From IMG/VR virus record IMGVR_UViG_3300042560_001826, positions 1-64,000 of that record: a stretch of 64,000 nucleotides of DNA; one strand, given 5' to 3'. Both the position numbers and the translations under genes were made by a program. Origin of the DNA: a virus. A model generated the notes under the pieces. The model searched no databases and was not told the origin of the DNA. It saw only the letters and a list, made by a program, of their open reading frames with translations. Below, in pieces: positions 1,099 through 58,287 of this stretch (its first letter is position 1; every line of letters begins with the position of its first letter).

Positions 1099-2631
1099 AT
1101 GAACGATTTTAACTTAGCTTTTCCTATCACGATGGTGAAGAAAGAACAAAGAATTGTTAGTGGAATTGCAACCGCAGACAATATTGATAAAGTTGGTGAT
1201 GTTGTTGATTTTAATGCCTCAGTAGAGGCATTCAAAAATTGGCAAGGTAATATCAGAGAAATGCATGCACCAATTGCTGTCGGTAAAGCAATTTCTTATA
1301 AGCCAATTAAGTTAAAAGCACCAGATGGTCAAGAATATAACGCCATGGAAGTTGAGGCGTATATTTCTAAAGGTGCAGAAAATACATGGCAAAAAGTTTT
1401 GGATGGAACACTTCGTGCTTTTTCCATTGGCGGAAAAATTCTGAAAAAGGAATTGATGCAGGGTAAGATGTTTAATGGTCGCCAAGTTTCTTTGATTAAA
1501 GAATATGAACTTGGTGAATTGAGCTTAGTGGATAATCCTGCAAATCCAGTAGCTGTTATTGATATTATTAAATTTGATCCATCAACTAATAATCTTGATT
1601 ACATGTTGAAGTGCTGCGATGGAGAAAATATTTGTGCATGCGATAATGTTGAAAAAAAGCAACCTATCAAAGATCCTAAAGGCGGTCTGACAGCCGCCGG
1701 TAGAAGATATTTTAGACAAAAAGAAGGCGCTAACTTAAAACCGGGAGTTAAGGGTGCAGCAAATACTCCTGAGAAGATGAGAAGAAAAGGCTCCTTCCTT
1801 ACAAGATTCTTTACAAATCCTTCTGGTCCAATGAAAAAGCCAAACGGCGAACCGACAAGACTTGCTCTTTCGGCAGCAGCCTGGGGCGAGCCTGTACCTC
1901 AGAATATGCAGGATGCCGCTAGATTGGCAGCAAAGGGTCGAAGGTTATTGGAAAGATATGCAAAAACAAAAGAAAAGAAGAAGTTTATATCATTTGAAAA
2001 TGATGAGGCTCTTCAAAAGTATATTGACAGTTTAGTAGATGAAGATTTTGGCAAAGAAACCGAAAACTCATTGCTAAATGATGTACAATATGATATGGTG
2101 GTTGAACCTATGGATAATTTAAATGTTGATAATGATAATAAGATGTCGTTAATCAAAAAGTTTGTCACTTGGCTAAGTTCGGAGTCAAGTGATAGTGAGC
2201 TTGAAAAGTTCACAAGCGCTGAAGTCTCACAATCAGAGGCCGCAGTTGAAACTGAACAAATGGAGGAACAAGAAATGGATATTGACGTTCTTAAGGATGC
2301 TCTTGGTTCCGTCATTGATCAGAAGCTAAACGACTTTGCCACTTCGCTTAAGGCTGAAGTTGAAGCAAATGTCGCTGCCAAGATTGATGAGGTTTCCAAG
2401 AATTTTGAAGAGCAAAAGTCTGAGCTTAATCAGAAGTTAGAAACGACTGAAAAGGCTTTAGAAGAGCAGACAGCCAAAGTTGAGCAACTCGCCAGCGCAG
2501 GCGCTGTTAAAAAGAGTGTTGATCCAGCAGACGATGAGGAGGAAGTAATTGAAAAGACTGCCCCCAAGTCGCTTTGGAACAACCTTTATCTCCCACAGGC
2601 TCTTATTGAGTCTTTGGGTTACAAGTCGTAA
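1099..2631 (+). CDS. Prohead (maturation) protease with inserted basic domain and C-terminal scaffold region
   Basis: N-terminal HK97-type protease motifs (REMH, FSIGG, ELSLVDNPAN); coiled-coil C-terminus; position between portal and MCP. Confidence 0.85.
   Translation: MNDFNLAFPITMVKKEQRIVSGIATADNIDKVGDVVDFNASVEAFKNWQGNIREMHAPIAVGKAISYKPIKLKAPDGQEYNAMEVEAYISKGAENTWQKVLDGTLRAFSIGGKILKKELMQGKMFNGRQVSLIKEYELGELSLVDNPANPVAVIDIIKFDPSTNNLDYMLKCCDGENICACDNVEKKQPIKDPKGGLTAAGRRYFRQKEGANLKPGVKGAANTPEKMRRKGSFLTRFFTNPSGPMKKPNGEPTRLALSAAAWGEPVPQNMQDAARLAAKGRRLLERYAKTKEKKKFISFENDEALQKYIDSLVDEDFGKETENSLLNDVQYDMVVEPMDNLNVDNDNKMSLIKKFVTWLSSESSDSELEKFTSAEVSQSEAAVETEQMEEQEMDIDVLKDALGSVIDQKLNDFATSLKAEVEANVAAKIDEVSKNFEEQKSELNQKLETTEKALEEQTAKVEQLASAGAVKKSVDPADDEEEVIEKTAPKSLWNNLYLPQALIESLGYKS
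2071..2099 (+). promoter_or_regulatory. Intragenic promoter TTGCTA-N17-TATGGT (TGn extended -10) ahead of nested scaffold/MCP
   Basis: Same -35 hexamer as the 1058 promoter with 17-nt spacer; GGAGG at 2262-2266 precedes in-frame ATG 2275. Confidence 0.45.
2275..2631 (+). CDS. Putative nested scaffolding protein (internal in-frame start of protease gene)
   Basis: GGAGG 8 nt before in-frame ATG; MDIDVLKDALGSVIDQKLNDF... coiled coil. Confidence 0.5.
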   Translation: MDIDVLKDALGSVIDQKLNDFATSLKAEVEANVAAKIDEVSKNFEEQKSELNQKLETTEKALEEQTAKVEQLASAGAVKKSVDPADDEEEVIEKTAPKSLWNNLYLPQALIESLGYKS

Positions 2632-2650
2632 TTAAGGAGGAACAACAATT

Positions 2651-3682
2651 ATGGCAACACAAGAAGAGATTCTTGCAAAGGCTGACGAAGTTACTACGAG
2701 CGTCGTTGGCAATGCAAGCGGTGGTCTGCTCAAGCCTGAGCAGTCAAATCGTTTTATTGATTTCGTGGTAGATCAGTCCAACCTGATGCGTAACTCGCGT
2801 GTCGTTCGCATGCGCACACCGCAGATGGAGATTGACAAGCTGTCCATTGGTACTCGCTTGCTTGCAAAAGCAACTGAGGCAACAGACACTGGCTCAAATG
2901 CCCCTGTTACTTTCACGAAGGTTTCGCTTTCTAGCGTTAAGCTTCGTCTTGACTGGGAGTTGAGCACTGAGTCGCTTGAGGATAACATTGAAGGTGCTTC
3001 GCTGGAAGATCACATCGCACAGGTGATGGCTCGCCAGACAGCAAATGACATGGATGACCTCTTGATCAATGGTAATACATCTTCTAACAACGGTCTGCTG
3101 AAGGCTCTTGACGGTTTCGTTAAGTTGGCTCTTGGCGGCGGTGTGACAGTTGATGAAGGCGGAAATAACGTGTCTCGTGCAACATACGATCGCGTTCTCC
3201 GTAACATGCCAACTAAGTACCTGCAGAAGCGTAATGAATTGCGTTTCTTCACTGGTCCTGGTTTGGTTCAGGATACATCATTCAGCCTGCAGAACCCCAA
3301 CTCGGCAACTGCAGCAACTGCTGGTGCACCTGCTCCTGGTTCGACATTTGGCGAACAGGCATTCATGAACGGTGCTATCCGTGCAAACGGTGGCCCTGGT
3401 GCAACTGGTCTTGCTCCTTATGGTATTCCGCTGGTGGAAATCCCGCTGATGCCAGAGACAGTGACTGGTGACTACTCGGGTGCTGCTGGTAGCCATGGCT
3501 ATGTTGAATTGACATTCCCCAACAACAGAATTGTTGGTATCCACAGAGATATTACTGTGTATCGTCAGTTCCAGCCAAAGACAGACACGATTGAGTACAC
3601 ACAATTTGTCCGACTTGCAAGCAACATTGAGAACGGTGCTTCTTATGTCATTGCAAAGAACGTCAAGTTGCGTTCGCTCTAA
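2651..3682 (+). CDS. Major capsid protein (HK97 fold)
   Basis: 343 aa, GGLLKPEQ motif, strong AAGGAGG SD, GC-richer high-expression codon usage, position after protease. Confidence 0.92.
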   Translation: MATQEEILAKADEVTTSVVGNASGGLLKPEQSNRFIDFVVDQSNLMRNSRVVRMRTPQMEIDKLSIGTRLLAKATEATDTGSNAPVTFTKVSLSSVKLRLDWELSTESLEDNIEGASLEDHIAQVMARQTANDMDDLLINGNTSSNNGLLKALDGFVKLALGGGVTVDEGGNNVSRATYDRVLRNMPTKYLQKRNELRFFTGPGLVQDTSFSLQNPNSATAATAGAPAPGSTFGEQAFMNGAIRANGGPGATGLAPYGIPLVEIPLMPETVTGDYSGAAGSHGYVELTFPNNRIVGIHRDITVYRQFQPKTDTIEYTQFVRLASNIENGASYVIAKNVKLRSL

Positions 3683-3707
3683 TTAATAGTCTGTAATTAG
3701 TTGTTGC

Positions 3708-3733
3708 GGCGGGGTGGATTATTCCGCCCCGCC
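3708..3733 (+). terminator. GC-rich hairpin after MCP (terminator or 3' stabiliser)
   Basis: GGCGGGGTGGA-ttat-TCCGCCCCGCC; no U tract. Confidence 0.6.
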
Positions 3734-3749
3734 AAAACAATATAAAGGG

Positions 3750-4037
3750 ATGATTATGAGTGATAATGTAATTAAAAGTGAAGATATAGCTCCAAAGAAA
3801 ACAAAGCAGGCTAAACCTAAAAAGGTAGCTCCTGCTGAAGTGCCATCTGGTGATAAGTCAATTGTCTTTTTTGAAAGCGGATATTCTTATTCATTATCAA
3901 ACGGTTTTACTTTTACGCAAGAAAATAGAATGCTTGAACTATCGGCGGAAGAGGCAAATAGATTGTTGGCTTTAGATAATTTTAGATTGCCTACTGACGA
4001 AGAAAAGCAAATGTATTATAATAGTTTGGAGGCATAA
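3750..4037 (+). CDS. Small post-MCP head-associated protein (start 3750 or 3756)
   Basis: Lys/Pro-rich N-terminus plus ~53-aa domain ending FRLPTDEEKQMYY; the ORF-track GTG start lies inside the hairpin. Confidence 0.75.
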   Translation: MIMSDNVIKSEDIAPKKTKQAKPKKVAPAEVPSGDKSIVFFESGYSYSLSNGFTFTQENRMLELSAEEANRLLALDNFRLPTDEEKQMYYNSLEA

Positions 4038-53531: not shown

Positions 53532-53865
53532 AATGGATTTTTCTAATTATCAATTTAGGGCGTGTAAAACTGCAAAGTATCCTCAGAACCCCACCACTGG
53601 GGTTATTTATACTGCTCTTGGATTGGCTTCAGAAGCTGGAGAAGTTGCTGGCAAAATCAAGAAGATGATCCGTGATGATAATATGGAATTAACATTTGAT
53701 AGAAAGCAGCAGGTGGTAGATGAGATTGGTGATGTCTTATGGTATTGCGCCATGCTCGCTACCGAACTAAACATTTCATTTAATGAAGTTGCAATCAGAA
53801 ATCTTCAGAAACTTGAAGATCGCAATAATAGAAATGCAATTCATGGAGATGGCGATAATCGTTAA
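53521..53865 (+). CDS. MazG-like NTP pyrophosphohydrolase
   Basis: LGLASEAGEVAGK.KK...EIGDVLWY...G.GDNR. Confidence 0.88.
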   Translation: MENEMDFSNYQFRACKTAKYPQNPTTGVIYTALGLASEAGEVAGKIKKMIRDDNMELTFDRKQQVVDEIGDVLWYCAMLATELNISFNEVAIRNLQKLEDRNNRNAIHGDGDNR

Positions 53866-55112
53866 TGCTGTTTTCAATTCATACTGATCAGCACATTATT
53901 GATGCCAACGGTATATTTGGGTATTCATATGGATACCATAAAACGATTGAAAACTTTAATAAGTTTAAGTATCGCAACGAAAAAATGAATGTCGTTAAAA
54001 ACGACAAGGCTTCTCCAATTCAAATGTTCTACATGGAGCCTGAGTGGTATAACTTGAAAACGATGACAAGTTTTCGTTCCCCTGAATTCCAAAAGTTCCA
54101 TGATCACCAGTATAAAATCTATGGAACATACCTTGAGACAACCCGCGTTTGGTCTCATTGGATTGAGGCGATGAAGCAAGTTGATGAAATTTGGGTCGGT
54201 AATAAATTTTCTGTAGATGCAATTAAGAATTCCGGCATTGAAACACCTGTGTATATTTTTGAATTGGGTTTAGATAAGATTTGGCAACCATACAAAAGAA
54301 AAGATACAGGCGTTGTCAGATTTCTTCATGTTGATTCAGGCAGTCCAAGAAAACGAGCTGACCTTGTAGAAAAAGCTTTTACTACTATTTTTGGAGACAG
54401 AAATGATGTTCAATTAACATTAAAATATCATTCTCATGAAGGCGATTCTGGTTACAGTGTGATGAATCTATTTTCTGGAAAATCTAACGTTGTAAAACTG
54501 TATAAAACATTAAGCACTGAGGAGATGGTAAAACTTTATCAAGATCACGATGTTCTTTTGTACCCAAGTGAGGGCGAAGGATTTGGTCTAATACCACTTC
54601 AGGCAATGGCTACAGGTATGCCTGTAATATCAACAGGAGTTTGGTGTGATTATGAAAGATTTTTTAACTCAAATATTATTGATTCAACCATGGGTAAAAC
54701 TCAACATACCGGGTATTTTGAAGGCGAAGTTGTGCTCCCAGACTTTGATTCGCTTGTTTCGCTTATTAAAAAAGTATACGACGATATTGATGCGCAAAAA
54801 AAGTTTTTTTATGATCAAGCTCCTCTTGTCATTGAAGAGTATGATTGGAAAAATAAAACAGATAAGGTTCTTAATGCTCTCATAAAAAGAGTCGGCATAA
54901 AAAAATTTAATCCCATCAAGGAGTATGTTGTTGTAAAAGACTTCATCTACTTTAAAGGCAACAACCGCTACATAGCCCCAGATGGATCTATGTTTGATTC
55001 AGAAAATAGAATTAGAGAAGTTGATAAGAAAGTCGCTGACAGCTTGGTATATAATAAGTCTTTTAGAAAAGCAACAGACGATGAGATAAGGGCGTTTAAT
55101 GAAAAGAACTGA
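53865..55112 (+). CDS. GT-B glycosyltransferase (GT4-like) with C-terminal domain homologous to post-MCP protein
   Basis: RK..D, YPSEGEGFGLIPLQAMATG.P motif; extra ~55-aa C-terminal domain. Confidence 0.85.
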   Translation: MLFSIHTDQHIIDANGIFGYSYGYHKTIENFNKFKYRNEKMNVVKNDKASPIQMFYMEPEWYNLKTMTSFRSPEFQKFHDHQYKIYGTYLETTRVWSHWIEAMKQVDEIWVGNKFSVDAIKNSGIETPVYIFELGLDKIWQPYKRKDTGVVRFLHVDSGSPRKRADLVEKAFTTIFGDRNDVQLTLKYHSHEGDSGYSVMNLFSGKSNVVKLYKTLSTEEMVKLYQDHDVLLYPSEGEGFGLIPLQAMATGMPVISTGVWCDYERFFNSNIIDSTMGKTQHTGYFEGEVVLPDFDSLVSLIKKVYDDIDAQKKFFYDQAPLVIEEYDWKNKTDKVLNALIKRVGIKKFNPIKEYVVVKDFIYFKGNNRYIAPDGSMFDSENRIREVDKKVADSLVYNKSFRKATDDEIRAFNEKN

Positions 55113-55398
55113 GAAGGAAGAGATTAAAAAAGACAAGGCTAAGGGTGTTAAAAATTCTGGGCGTGGCGTGAAGAAGGGAGATGCAACTCTTAATAAATTT
55201 CTTGTTGATTACAAGCACAATGGCAAGTCATTTACTCTTACGCATGAAAACTGGCTTGAGCACCGGAAAAATTCTTGGAAATCAAATTACCGTTATCCTT
55301 GTATTTCTGTCGTATTTGGGGAAGATTCCGAAACAAAGGTTGCTATAGTGGAGTGGGAAGTGTTCAAAGAACTCATAGAAGGCTCAGAATATGAATAA
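55099..55398 (+). CDS. PD-(D/E)xK Holliday-junction-resolvase-like nuclease
   Basis: NSGRG..KGD......VDYK. Confidence 0.65.
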   Translation: MKRTEKEEIKKDKAKGVKNSGRGVKKGDATLNKFLVDYKHNGKSFTLTHENWLEHRKNSWKSNYRYPCISVVFGEDSETKVAIVEWEVFKELIEGSEYE

Positions 55399-56761
55399 AA
55401 AAACTTTTGGATCGCTATTTGCAGGTGTTGGCGGGTTTGACATTGGCATGGAAAATGCTGGCTGGGATTGTAGCTGGCAAGTTGAATGGGATAAACATTG
55501 TCAGTCAGTACTGCAAAAGCATTGGCCTAATGTGCCAAAGTATTGGGATATTCAAGATGTAAATGGTGCAGAATTAACGCCAGTAGATTGCATCGTTTTT
55601 GGTTCTCCTTGCCAAGACCTATCGGTTGCTGGCAAGGGTGGAGGGCTTGAGGGATCACGCTCAGGCTTATTTTATGAAGCAATTAGAGTTATAAAGGAGA
55701 TGAGAAATGCAACTGGAAATCAATTTCCAAAATGGTCAATCTGGGAGAATGTCCCAGGAGCCCTCACAAGCAATAAAGGAAACGACTTCGCAAAGGTCCT
55801 TGACGAAATGGCAAACATCGGGGCATTGGTCCTTGAATGGCACATCTTGGATGCACAATGGTTCGGAGTCGCCCAGCGCAGAAGAAGAGTCTTCTTGCTT
55901 GCTTGTTACGATTCTGGAACCGCTTCAAGATGTTCCGAAAAAATATTACCTGTCCCCCAAGACAGCGAGGGGAATATTAAAAAGGGCAGAAAAGAAAGGA
56001 AACATTCTGCCAGAGCCTCTAAGACAAACGCTGATCAACCTATCCTCTATGGACAGTCAGGATTTGCAAAGTGGACAGAAGGCGGAGTAACGCTGGCAGC
56101 AACTGATTACAAACGACCAGAAAGAAATGTTGTTTGTGAGCCTATATCGTTTCATTTAAAGCAAGATCCAGTGCATTCATATAATGTTTCGCAATGTTTA
56201 TATGGGCAAAATGGTGTTGGCGTAGCAATTGAAAGACCTTTTATTCTTGATGGTACAAGAGTTGGTGATGCGAGAATATATGAAGATCAAATTGTTCCAA
56301 CGCTAAAGCACAGGATGGGAACAGGTGGCGGTCAAGTTCCACTTGTTGGCGTAGATGCAGATGTTCTTGCTTATGATGGCTATAATAACGCTGTTAGCGA
56401 GAATATTTATCGCACATTAAGAATTGGAATTGATTCTGCTGACCATATTGCAATCCCAATTCAAGGCACAATTATTGGTCGTTCAGACAAGGCCGGACCG
56501 CAAGGGAAAGGCTTTGGTGACGAAAATGATCCATCGTATACTCTTGATACAATTTCACAGCATGGAGTTATGACACCTGATCTTCTACTTAGAAGATTGA
56601 CTCCTCTTGAATGTGAAAGGCTTATGGGGTTCCCTGATGAACATACGAAATATTATCACGATGGGAAGATTGTTGCAGATACCAACAGGTACAAGATGTG
56701 CGGTAATGCTGTGGCAAGTCCAGTTGCCGAATGGATTGGGAGGAAAATCTATGAAATTTAG
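55391..56761 (+). CDS. DNA cytosine-5 methyltransferase with expanded variable region
   Basis: FAGVGG (I), GSPCQ (IV), ENV (VI), QRRRRVF (VIII), RRLTP.ECERLMGFP (IX), YKMCGNAV (X). Confidence 0.93.
   Translation: MNKKTFGSLFAGVGGFDIGMENAGWDCSWQVEWDKHCQSVLQKHWPNVPKYWDIQDVNGAELTPVDCIVFGSPCQDLSVAGKGGGLEGSRSGLFYEAIRVIKEMRNATGNQFPKWSIWENVPGALTSNKGNDFAKVLDEMANIGALVLEWHILDAQWFGVAQRRRRVFLLACYDSGTASRCSEKILPVPQDSEGNIKKGRKERKHSARASKTNADQPILYGQSGFAKWTEGGVTLAATDYKRPERNVVCEPISFHLKQDPVHSYNVSQCLYGQNGVGVAIERPFILDGTRVGDARIYEDQIVPTLKHRMGTGGGQVPLVGVDADVLAYDGYNNAVSENIYRTLRIGIDSADHIAIPIQGTIIGRSDKAGPQGKGFGDENDPSYTLDTISQHGVMTPDLLLRRLTPLECERLMGFPDEHTKYYHDGKIVADTNRYKMCGNAVASPVAEWIGRKIYEI
55707..56090 (+). CDS. Alternative-frame protein nested in the methyltransferase gene (putative beta subunit)
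   Basis: AAGGAG at 55694-55699, 7 nt before ATG; ILE...VP.KYYLS...GIL.RA resembles the post-motif-VIII segment of C5-MTases. Confidence 0.6.
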   Translation: MQLEINFQNGQSGRMSQEPSQAIKETTSQRSLTKWQTSGHWSLNGTSWMHNGSESPSAEEESSCLLVTILEPLQDVPKKYYLSPKTARGILKRAEKKGNILPEPLRQTLINLSSMDSQDLQSGQKAE

Positions 56762-56966
56762 ATTTTTTTGTGATAGATTAATGGGCTGGATGGCATTTGG
56801 CATCACAATTAACTGGGATGATGGTGTATACTTTGGAGTGTACATTGCGAAATGGCTCATCGGGTTACAGTCTTATAAAGAAAAGAAAGCAGTAGTAATG
56901 GCGGAAGATCTTATTAAATATAACTACGGTAGAAAGGGATCAAATGCCAGACATTCTGATCAATAA
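56751..56966 (+). CDS. Hypothetical protein (MKFRFFCDRLMGW...)
   Basis: GGAGG SD before ATG 56751. Confidence 0.55.
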   Translation: MKFRFFCDRLMGWMAFGITINWDDGVYFGVYIAKWLIGLQSYKEKKAVVMAEDLIKYNYGRKGSNARHSDQ

Positions 56967-57267
56967 AGAAATTCTTGCATCCCATATGGGAGACAAGGCA
57001 GATGAATTTATTGAGTGCCTTCGGATAGTAGAGGATATTATTTCTAATCCGGACCATTATGTTGGTCTGCAAGCTATTAAATATGCAAATATTTTGGCGG
57101 CTTATCGCACAGTAATGATTGTTAAATCTCAGATGTTTAAGAGAAAATCAACAATGATGTCTGAACAAGATAAGTTTGTTAACGATATATGGAAAACCAT
57201 GTATGAAGCCCTGTCTGAAAATATTAATGCCCTCAAATTAGCTGCTAAAGGAGGCTATAACCAATGA
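56944..57267 (+). CDS. Hypothetical helical protein
   Basis: ORF coupled to neighbours. Confidence 0.65.
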   Translation: MPDILINKEILASHMGDKADEFIECLRIVEDIISNPDHYVGLQAIKYANILAAYRTVMIVKSQMFKRKSTMMSEQDKFVNDIWKTMYEALSENINALKLAAKGGYNQ

Positions 57268-58007
57268 AATCATTAAAGAAATTAAAGGAAAAGAAAGAAC
57301 CATTGGCAAAAGATGTCAAGGTTGAAATAAGAAAAACTATTACTGAGGGGATTGATGAGTTCCTTTCTAAAAGGAATACCCCTGTTTATAAACAAGTAAG
57401 TGGTTTTCACCCAAGTTATACAAACCAATGTGCAAGATATTGGTATTATCTGTTTAATGGAGTTGAAGTAACATCATCCTTTAACCCTCAGACATACAGA
57501 ATTTTTGATAATGGACATGCAGTTCACAATAGATTGTACAGTTATTTTAGAGATATGGGGATCTTGGTTGAGGAAGAAATTCCAGTAACCCATGATTCTC
57601 CGCCAATTGAAGGCACTGCAGATGGTATCATTGATTGGTATGGACATAAGCTTATTGAATTAAAATCAATTAGTTCAGAAGGCTTCCATTACAGAAAACT
57701 TTATAACAAACCAAAAGACGAGCACTACAGGCAAGCGCAGATCTATATGCGCTGCTTAAATCTTGATTCTGGATATGTTATTTACGAAAACAAAAACAAT
57801 CAAGAGATACTACCAATTTATATTGAAAAAGACGATAAATTCATAAACAAACTATTTGACAAGTATACTAAGATTTATAATAATTATCTGAATAATCAGA
57901 TACCCGAGCGACCTTATAAGAGAACTTCAGAGCATTGCAGTTCTTGTGATTTGGCTGCTTTATGTTGGTCGGAGAATGTACGAGAAGGAAAAGAAGAAAT
58001 GTTCTAA
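57264..58007 (+). CDS. Cas4-like PD-(D/E)xK exonuclease
   Basis: C.R...G.AVH...GTADG...ELKS...Q..IY...C..C....C. Confidence 0.82.
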   Translation: MKSLKKLKEKKEPLAKDVKVEIRKTITEGIDEFLSKRNTPVYKQVSGFHPSYTNQCARYWYYLFNGVEVTSSFNPQTYRIFDNGHAVHNRLYSYFRDMGILVEEEIPVTHDSPPIEGTADGIIDWYGHKLIELKSISSEGFHYRKLYNKPKDEHYRQAQIYMRCLNLDSGYVIYENKNNQEILPIYIEKDDKFINKLFDKYTKIYNNYLNNQIPERPYKRTSEHCSSCDLAALCWSENVREGKEEMF

Positions 58008-58287
58008 CCCTGAATGTAGTAAGGTATTTTTAGCTAAAGTCTATAATGCTATCTATTGCTCAGCAGAGTGCAGAAGAATAGTCACAAATAAAAATTTACT
58101 TGCGAATTATTACGAGAAAAAAAGTAATAAAAATAAAAAGAGGATTTGTAAAACTGAGGGGTGCGCAACAGTCTTATCTAAATATAACAAGGAAAAGATT
58201 TGTGAAAGTTGTAAACGCGAAAGATTTGTTAAGCGTCTCATGTCTTGGGGCTGGTCTGAAAAACAAGCCAGAGGAGACATGTGGTGA
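57976..58287 (+). CDS. Cys-rich zinc-binding hypothetical protein
   Basis: Four Cys pairs; GGAG before ATG 57976. Confidence 0.65.
   Translation: MYEKEKKKCSNPECSKVFLAKVYNAIYCSAECRRIVTNKNLLANYYEKKSNKNKKRICKTEGCATVLSKYNKEKICESCKRERFVKRLMSWGWSEKQARGDMW

Follow-up and report, generated by a model that had tools for sequence, protein, structure and literature searches.

The 64,000-nucleotide stretch analysed here (the window; positions 1 to 64,000 of IMG/VR virus record IMGVR_UViG_3300042560_001826) comes from a 105 kb virus record rated complete by CheckV. It carries a C5 DNA cytosine methyltransferase gene on the plus strand (55391..56761, 456 amino acids, referred to as frame 0), identified by PF00145, by alignment to M.HhaI, and by its homologues. 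A second open reading frame (ORF), nested in the +1 frame of this gene, encodes a small protein with a conserved domain, and is the subject of this report.

The frame-0 protein matches PF00145 with 203 bits (E 1e-59; Pfam cut-off 22), which places it among the C5 methyltransferases, and has more than 100 homologues with 53–99% identity. It was aligned to M.HhaI residues 14–171 (motifs I–VIII) and 271–316 (motifs IX–X). Motifs I–VIII occupy frame-0 residues 6–173 and motifs IX–X occupy residues 400–451, with a variable region in between. Motif IX (RRLTPLECERLMGFPD, residues 400–416) aligns within M.HhaI 271–316. Motif VIII, QRRRR, is found at residues 162–166 (55874..55888, plus strand). The frame-0 reading that follows, across the DNA encoding the nested domain, is a loosely conserved connector (residues 167–221, VFLLACYDSGTASRCSEKILPVPQDSEGNIKKGRKERKHSARASKTNADQPILYG; 55889..56053, plus strand). 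In the AlphaFold2 (AF2) model of the frame-0 protein, the predicted local distance difference test score (pLDDT) drops from ~88 to ~28 across residues 171–210. Searches of a phage collection with blastn produced only short matches of 68%–71% identity, and comparisons were therefore run at the protein and locus level.

The nested ORF begins with an ATG at 55707 and continues for 127 codons to a TAA stop at 56088–56090 (55707..56090, plus strand). Its offset from the methyltransferase ORF, (55707 − 55391) mod 3 = 1, puts it in the +1 frame. A Shine-Dalgarno box, AAGGAG, precedes the ATG (55694..55699, plus strand) with a spacer of 7 nt (55700–55706), and is built from the frame-0 codons AAG GAG that encode the K-E of IKEMR. 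An earlier reading of this DNA made from the sequence alone (the sequence-only reading) had reported this 127-codon ORF with AAGGAG 7 nt ahead of its ATG, and the positions, the box, and the peptide it quoted all hold. The predicted nested protein has two parts. Residues 1–53 form a leader that overlaps frame-0 motifs VI–VIII (55707..55865, plus strand), delimited by AF2 and by patterns of synonymous variation, and contain two additional in-frame ATGs (55749 and 55851). Residues 54–113 form a conserved, basic domain that is predicted to be helical (ESP...LLVTILEPLQDVPKKYYLSPKTARGILKRAEKKGNILPEPLRQTL; 55866..56045, plus strand), delimited by alignments A3 and A4 and by AF2. The best-conserved +1 stretch (SSCLLVTILE onward) begins at 55890; the domain profile begins earlier, at 55866, within the overlap with motif VIII.

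Conservation of the nested ORF was examined in 80 viral loci whose main proteins are 30%–78% identical to the window methyltransferase. A tblastn search with the nested peptide matched 75 of these loci, in the +1 frame every time, and the remaining five (L064, L069, L075, L045, and L039) were recovered in the same frame with a profile hidden Markov model (HMM). The sequence-only reading had proposed checking that the +1 frame stays open and conserved in homologues, and it does so at 80/80 viral loci, with an open run of at least 113 codons in 60. Directly after motif VIII, the +1 frame of nearly every locus reads (S)LSxILQ..VPxKYYLSxKAxxGILRRAxxRGKxLPxxLxxAL, whereas frame 0 over the same DNA varies widely (KILPVPQDSEGNIKKGRKERK in the window versus EILFEPEGVQGDSAAGTG elsewhere). 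Pairwise identity across the 55 codons past motif VIII averages 0.52 in the +1 frame, 0.30 in frame 0, and 0.26 in the +2 frame, which has 3.2 stops per sequence over those codons. The description of the main frame in this region as linker-like, also made in the sequence-only reading, is thus partly borne out by its 30% identity and by the drop in pLDDT. The window itself has the features of the family: a +1 ORF within the range of ~113–186 codons that covers motifs VI–VIII and the first 55–70 codons past motif VIII, its own Shine-Dalgarno box and ATG just past the upstream +1 stop, and a peptide with every invariant column (L66, L82, G89, R93, P102, L105, and L109; A3 members are 33%–73% identical).

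Patterns of nucleotide and codon conservation follow the +1 frame. Conservation at the three +1 codon positions is 0.60, 0.67, and 0.41; the most conserved base in the nested domain is the frame-0 wobble position and the least conserved is the +1 wobble position. Single frame-0 third positions are 0.92–0.97 conserved where they lie opposite the invariant +1 residues G, R, L, and L. Among identical frame-0 residues, the share encoded by the same codon is 0.42 upstream of the nested ORF, 0.575 in the leader, 0.731 in the domain, 0.44 in the tail, and 0.39 downstream. By this measure, frame-0 synonymous variation is suppressed in the domain and moderately so in the leader. The open run points the same way. 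In the window, it is 128 codons long (−62 to +66, counted from where motif VIII ends), while the remaining 330 codons of the +1 frame hold 12 stops (P ~0.009 for a 128-codon open run at a given place). In 60 full-length relatives, the +1 run over the nested spot has a median length of 132.5 codons and a minimum of 113, whereas the rest of the +1 frame in those genes has a stop every 20.6 codons on average. The codon-usage and open-run probabilities count related loci as independent and are for this reason overstated. The periodicity, codon, open-run, and identity tests agree in direction, which indicates purifying selection on a +1-frame protein, and from these alignments it is very probable that the nested gene is real and under selection.

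Three more distant methyltransferases from viral contigs (L066, L073, and L074; ~1490–2140) read IYLVGY..G..IFPI.E in frame 0 after motif VIII. They have a long open +1 frame with TLSDILETE..KYFLS.K, which matches the domain profile weakly (E ~1e-6) and is also matched by tblastn. They may represent another branch of the nested gene, found in enzymes resembling those of Bacillus phages.

The signals for starting the nested gene are preserved in two dissimilar ways. In relatives, the +1 frame is open for 60–85 codons upstream of the domain, and in most loci a strong Shine-Dalgarno sequence occurs at initiation spacing before the first ATG that follows the upstream +1 stop. Members of the window subfamily encode IKEMR[ND]A in frame 0 and use AAG GAG ATG xxx xAT GCA in 22/22 loci; gene-wide, lysine is encoded by AAG with a share of 0.46, glutamate by GAG with a share of 0.28, and 56% of asparagine and aspartate codons end in T. 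A second subfamily encodes MR(C/E)xT(N/D)G in frame 0 and has GAGGTG (or AGGAG), 8 nt, and ATG as its start signal. Here 24 of 41 loci use AGG for the arginine, a codon whose gene-wide share is 0.12, and the N/D codon ends in T in 40 of the 41. Judged from codon choice, the Shine-Dalgarno box and ATG are preserved through synonymous codons in frame 0. The two subfamilies meet the same need differently, and independent initiation is therefore favored over ribosome slippage; we consider it likely that the nested gene has its own start. At the level of the alignments, then, the ORF, its conservation, and the selection acting on its frame and on its start signals are demonstrated.

The nested product was modeled with AF2 from a 72-sequence alignment. 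Residues 1–60 have a pLDDT of ~54 and no secondary structure, and the leader is accordingly predicted to lack a stable structure on its own. Residues ~65–115 were modeled as three helices (pLDDT 83–91). The domain core spans 33 residues, and its net charge averages +6. Searches for known relatives of the protein gave little. The nested ORF had no match in Pfam, and 54 domain sequences gave scattered single hits only (E ≥ 0.003). A sequence profile search of the PDB with the domain found nothing at E ≤ 10, and Foldseek with the nested protein found nothing in the PDB at E ≤ 1e-3. Matches in the ESM Atlas were to unnamed clusters of viral "hypothetical protein" only.

The domain is nonetheless widespread in sequence databases. 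A search of 1.84 billion proteins with the domain profile identified 4,400 cluster representatives at E ≤ 1e-3, of which 3,531 remain at E ≤ 1e-10. The majority of these matches are proteins of 75–170 amino acids with the domain at the C-terminal end, and the representatives that were looked up are nameless or "hypothetical protein." One phage protein cluster, phrog_16143 ("DNA methyltransferase," 139 positions), was matched by 37 of 72 nested products (best E 2.2e-10; window E 9.5e-4), which indicates that some phage annotations already hold proteins with the nested domain. This is an automatic cluster, and neither its name nor its category label gives any hint of a gene nested in another frame. 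The nested domain also occurs in the +1 frame of the dmt gene of coliphage P1 (match at 2501, coding sequence start at 1867; HMM E 7.5e-23), of Vibrio phage CP-T1 gp12, and of mycobacteriophage Omega gp127, and is not annotated in any of the three. In conjugative elements of Firmicutes (L084, L092, and L105), it is found, likewise without annotation, in the +1 frame of 600-amino-acid methyltransferases with an adjoining ParB-like gene. Two of the mycobacteriophage loci have irregular annotations. For the Omega methyltransferase (L201, 705–2009), the annotation lists two "hypothetical" genes, gp127 and gp128, and the domain belongs to the +1 frame of the former. In Schatzie (L202, 21–1905), an HNH endonuclease gene interrupts the methyltransferase, with the annotation "unable to determine intron boundaries."

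The domain is tied to the methyltransferase gene by its position and by rare variants in gene layout. In everything examined, it was seen only within methyltransferase genes; in every case the nested ORF starts in the region of motifs V–VI, with motif VIII marking the beginning of its domain. The domain profile had no match among 120 main-frame homologues, and none of 147 loci had the domain in one frame with both motifs I–VIII and motifs IX–X (a crude classification by regular expressions, in which 39 loci were partial or other). In rare variants (L146, L038, and L039, and proteins P0161 and P0121–P0123), frame 0 ends soon after motif VIII, and the +1 ORF continues from the same start through the domain, the target-recognition domain (TRD), and motifs IX–X. 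In L146, for example, the alpha gene spans 2161–2901 and the beta gene 2501–3778, with an overlap of 401 nt. In these fused variants, the +1 start must serve to make an essential half of the methyltransferase, and the domain and the TRD are joined covalently. Comparison of the two layouts suggests that a single indel near the end of the domain would convert one into the other.

Two other arrangements were observed. At L029 (1501–2996), the methyltransferase extends over three frames: frame 0 carries motifs I–VIII, +1 the domain ORF, and +2 motifs IX–X. Either a broken gene or a three-piece arrangement could explain this. Protein P0251 (481 amino acids) has the order leader, domain, TRD, and motifs IX–X, followed by motif I (MASLFDGIGGFPL...) at its C-terminal end, which suggests a permuted gene in some elements, with the beta part ahead of the alpha part.

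C5 methyltransferases tolerate splits in the proximal variable region, and M.AquI and M.EcoHK31I are natural two-chain forms (PMC3404938, PMC2836561). M.EcoHK31I from E. coli HK31 (YGGCCR) is a two-polypeptide C5 methyltransferase whose beta chain is nested in another frame, has internal start codons, and carries motif IX, which is absent from alpha (PMC2836561). The sequence-only reading had cited this alternative-frame beta polypeptide correctly and had proposed that the window encodes a two-chain enzyme of overlapping frames. Part of that proposal stands, in that the nested gene appears to be real, with its own conserved ribosome-binding site and start. The nested protein is not a beta chain of the EcoHK31I type. 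As in M.EcoHK31I, the second ORF of the window lies wholly inside the methyltransferase gene, on the same strand and in another frame; unlike in M.EcoHK31I, motif IX is in the main frame, and the nested protein lacks motif IX and carries instead a domain placed directly after motif VIII. M.EcoHK31I is also a single described case, whereas the nested gene of the window runs through a very large family. We therefore treat M.EcoHK31I as an architectural analogue only, likened by its layout and not by the sequence of its beta chain.

M.AquI (CYCGRG) is an alpha/beta C5 methyltransferase divided between motif VIII and the TRD (PMC3404938). The variants L146, L038, and L039 share this division point, with an alpha part (motifs I–VIII) and a beta part (domain, TRD, and motifs IX–X) whose start lies inside alpha in the +1 frame. 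The window differs from M.AquI in that frame 0 is unbroken over 456 amino acids to motif X, and only the small domain would be on a second chain. A third comparison is with the one-chain enzyme Dcm of E. coli, in which a segment with the pattern L..[IL]L....V..KY.L[ST] occupies the same place in gene order as the nested domain, after motif VIII and before the TRD. In Dcm this segment is in frame, and the GILRRA..RGK.LP half of the nested domain has no counterpart there. A literature search for a nested gene in this methyltransferase family found no description; only work on M.EcoHK31I and M.AquI surfaced.

We propose that the window encodes an independently translated nested gene whose product is a second chain of the enzyme, and assign this explanation as a whole a probability of about 0.58. 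Ribosomes would start at ATG 55707, guided by the AAGGAG within the main-frame K-E codons, and would produce a 127-residue protein consisting of a leader overprinted on motifs VI–VIII and a basic three-helix domain. The domain is encoded exactly where the main frame exits motif VIII into the variable region and reads as a loosely conserved connector. The small protein would bind the enzyme, or the complex of enzyme and DNA, at the junction between the large domain and the TRD, and would provide, in trans, the part with which the variable (target-recognition) region begins, giving an active enzyme of two chains. Translation of the small protein, its binding, and a need for it in methylation are inferences; that it serves as an enzyme subunit, for which the fused gene layouts give indirect support, is held with somewhat better than even confidence.

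The principal alternative is that the nested gene is translated but that its product is a separate small basic protein, such as a DNA-binding regulator or a helper against host defence, and not part of the enzyme. We regard this as the less probable account, and several observations that weigh against a second enzyme chain can be read in its favor. The main-frame protein retains all ten motifs and might act alone. The domain is compact, strongly basic, and helical, has no match to a methyltransferase structure or Pfam model, and is never in frame with the catalytic half across the 147 loci. A wide search with VIA-align returned generic helical matches only (best Z, 5.1); the fold of the small protein is unlike anything known, and structure thus offers no hint of its function. 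Nor can a missing piece of the enzyme be demonstrated structurally, as the frame-0 variable region has no usable AF2 model (residues 192–400, pLDDT 23–47). The comparison with Dcm is similarly limited. With hhalign, A3 is placed on Dcm residues 309–338, the expected spot, but not significantly (E 0.053, probability 1%–2%), and against a Dcm family profile (A6) the result is E 0.023 at a probability of 1%–2%, with A6 being shallow because the search returned only Dcm relatives of at least 71% identity over the searched region. The sequence-only reading had likened the nested peptide to the L.DILE..KYYLS segment that normally follows motif VIII in these enzymes; the placement agrees with this, and with E values of 0.02–0.05 and a probability of 1%–2% the likeness is suggestive only.

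Other observations are harder to reconcile with a separate protein. The alpha/beta variants fuse the domain to the half of the enzyme that contains the TRD and motifs IX–X. The domain lies at the gene position of the proximal variable region of one-chain enzymes, where the best hhalign placement on Dcm also falls, and it is confined to methyltransferase genes in everything examined.

A second alternative dispenses with a separate start: a +1 ribosomal slip near motif VIII would append the conserved domain to a truncated catalytic domain. The conserved +1 sequence does begin at motif VIII, where the arginine codons of the window are AGA or AGG, and a few database proteins (P0128, P0159, and P0230) read frame 0 and then +1 as one chain. 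These fused proteins, however, change frame at differing places, as would be expected of errors or broken genes. A slip at motif VIII has no need of the 60–85 open +1 codons upstream of the domain, nor of a Shine-Dalgarno box and ATG separated by 7–8 nt and kept by synonymous choice in two dissimilar subfamilies. No shared slippery sequence was visible at the frame junction in the junction sequences, which were not searched systematically. Slippage is therefore very unlikely. Least probable of all is that there is no second product and that the +1 similarity is a relic of an ancestral frame or a by-product of main-frame or RNA-structure constraint: the leader may be partly fixed simply through conservation of frame-0 motifs VI–VIII, and runs of C, G, and A give P, G, and K in both frames alike, but the domain is better conserved in +1 than in frame 0 at main-protein identities down to ~30%, codon periodicity is that of the +1 frame, and the stop-free run and start signals are maintained, where a relic would have decayed.

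Two other origins of the ORF were considered and rejected. A chance ORF does not account for a +1 peptide kept in 80/80 viral loci with selection on its frame, and a sequencing frameshift does not account for both frames being open in all full-length loci.

The methyltransferase gene has further plus-strand genes around it. Upstream, a 415-amino-acid family-4 glycosyltransferase is encoded at 53865–55112 (PF00534, E 5e-12; phrog_2170, E 8e-46), and its product also weakly matches PF20706, "GT4 in conflict systems" (26.6 bits; the cut-off is 26). Between it and the methyltransferase is a 99-amino-acid ORF (55099–55398) that matches phage Holliday junction resolvases (phrog_2002, E 1.4e-14). It shares 14 nt with the end of the glycosyltransferase gene and 8 nt with the beginning of the methyltransferase gene, overlaps that suggest translational coupling of all three. 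At the other end of the methyltransferase gene, its last 155 nt are also covered, in a different frame, by a 119-codon ORF whose start codon is TTG (56607–56966). Downstream are a Cas4-like PD-(D/E)XK exonuclease with a C-terminal cysteine cluster (57264–58007; phrog_1706, E 2e-41) and a cysteine-rich ORF of 113 amino acids (57946–58287; phrog_10853, E 4e-15) that overlaps the 3′ end of the Cas4-like gene.

Returning to the nested gene as a source of a second enzyme chain, the same interpretation can be extended, tentatively, to the whole family. C5 methyltransferases of this type in phages, prophages, and conjugative elements (at least ~4,400 clusters at 50% identity, including P1 dmt) would then be obligate two-chain enzymes in which the small protein is needed for activity or target choice, and their layouts would interconvert by single indels. 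Two-chain C5 methyltransferases with overlapping genes were already known; what is new is a widespread and largely unannotated nested gene, which connects M.EcoHK31I and M.AquI, two odd known enzymes, to a widespread layout. Annotations of phages and bacteria hardly ever include genes nested in another frame, and few such genes have comparative evidence this strong. The locus is also a clean natural system for studying the evolution of one stretch of DNA under two protein constraints. P1 Dmt and many methyltransferases of this family from prophages and conjugative elements shield mobile DNA against restriction. Should the small protein belong to the enzyme, then such "single-gene" methyltransferases, whether cloned, expressed, or predicted, have had a hidden partner throughout their study and annotation, and codon-optimized or recoded synthetic versions would silently drop it.

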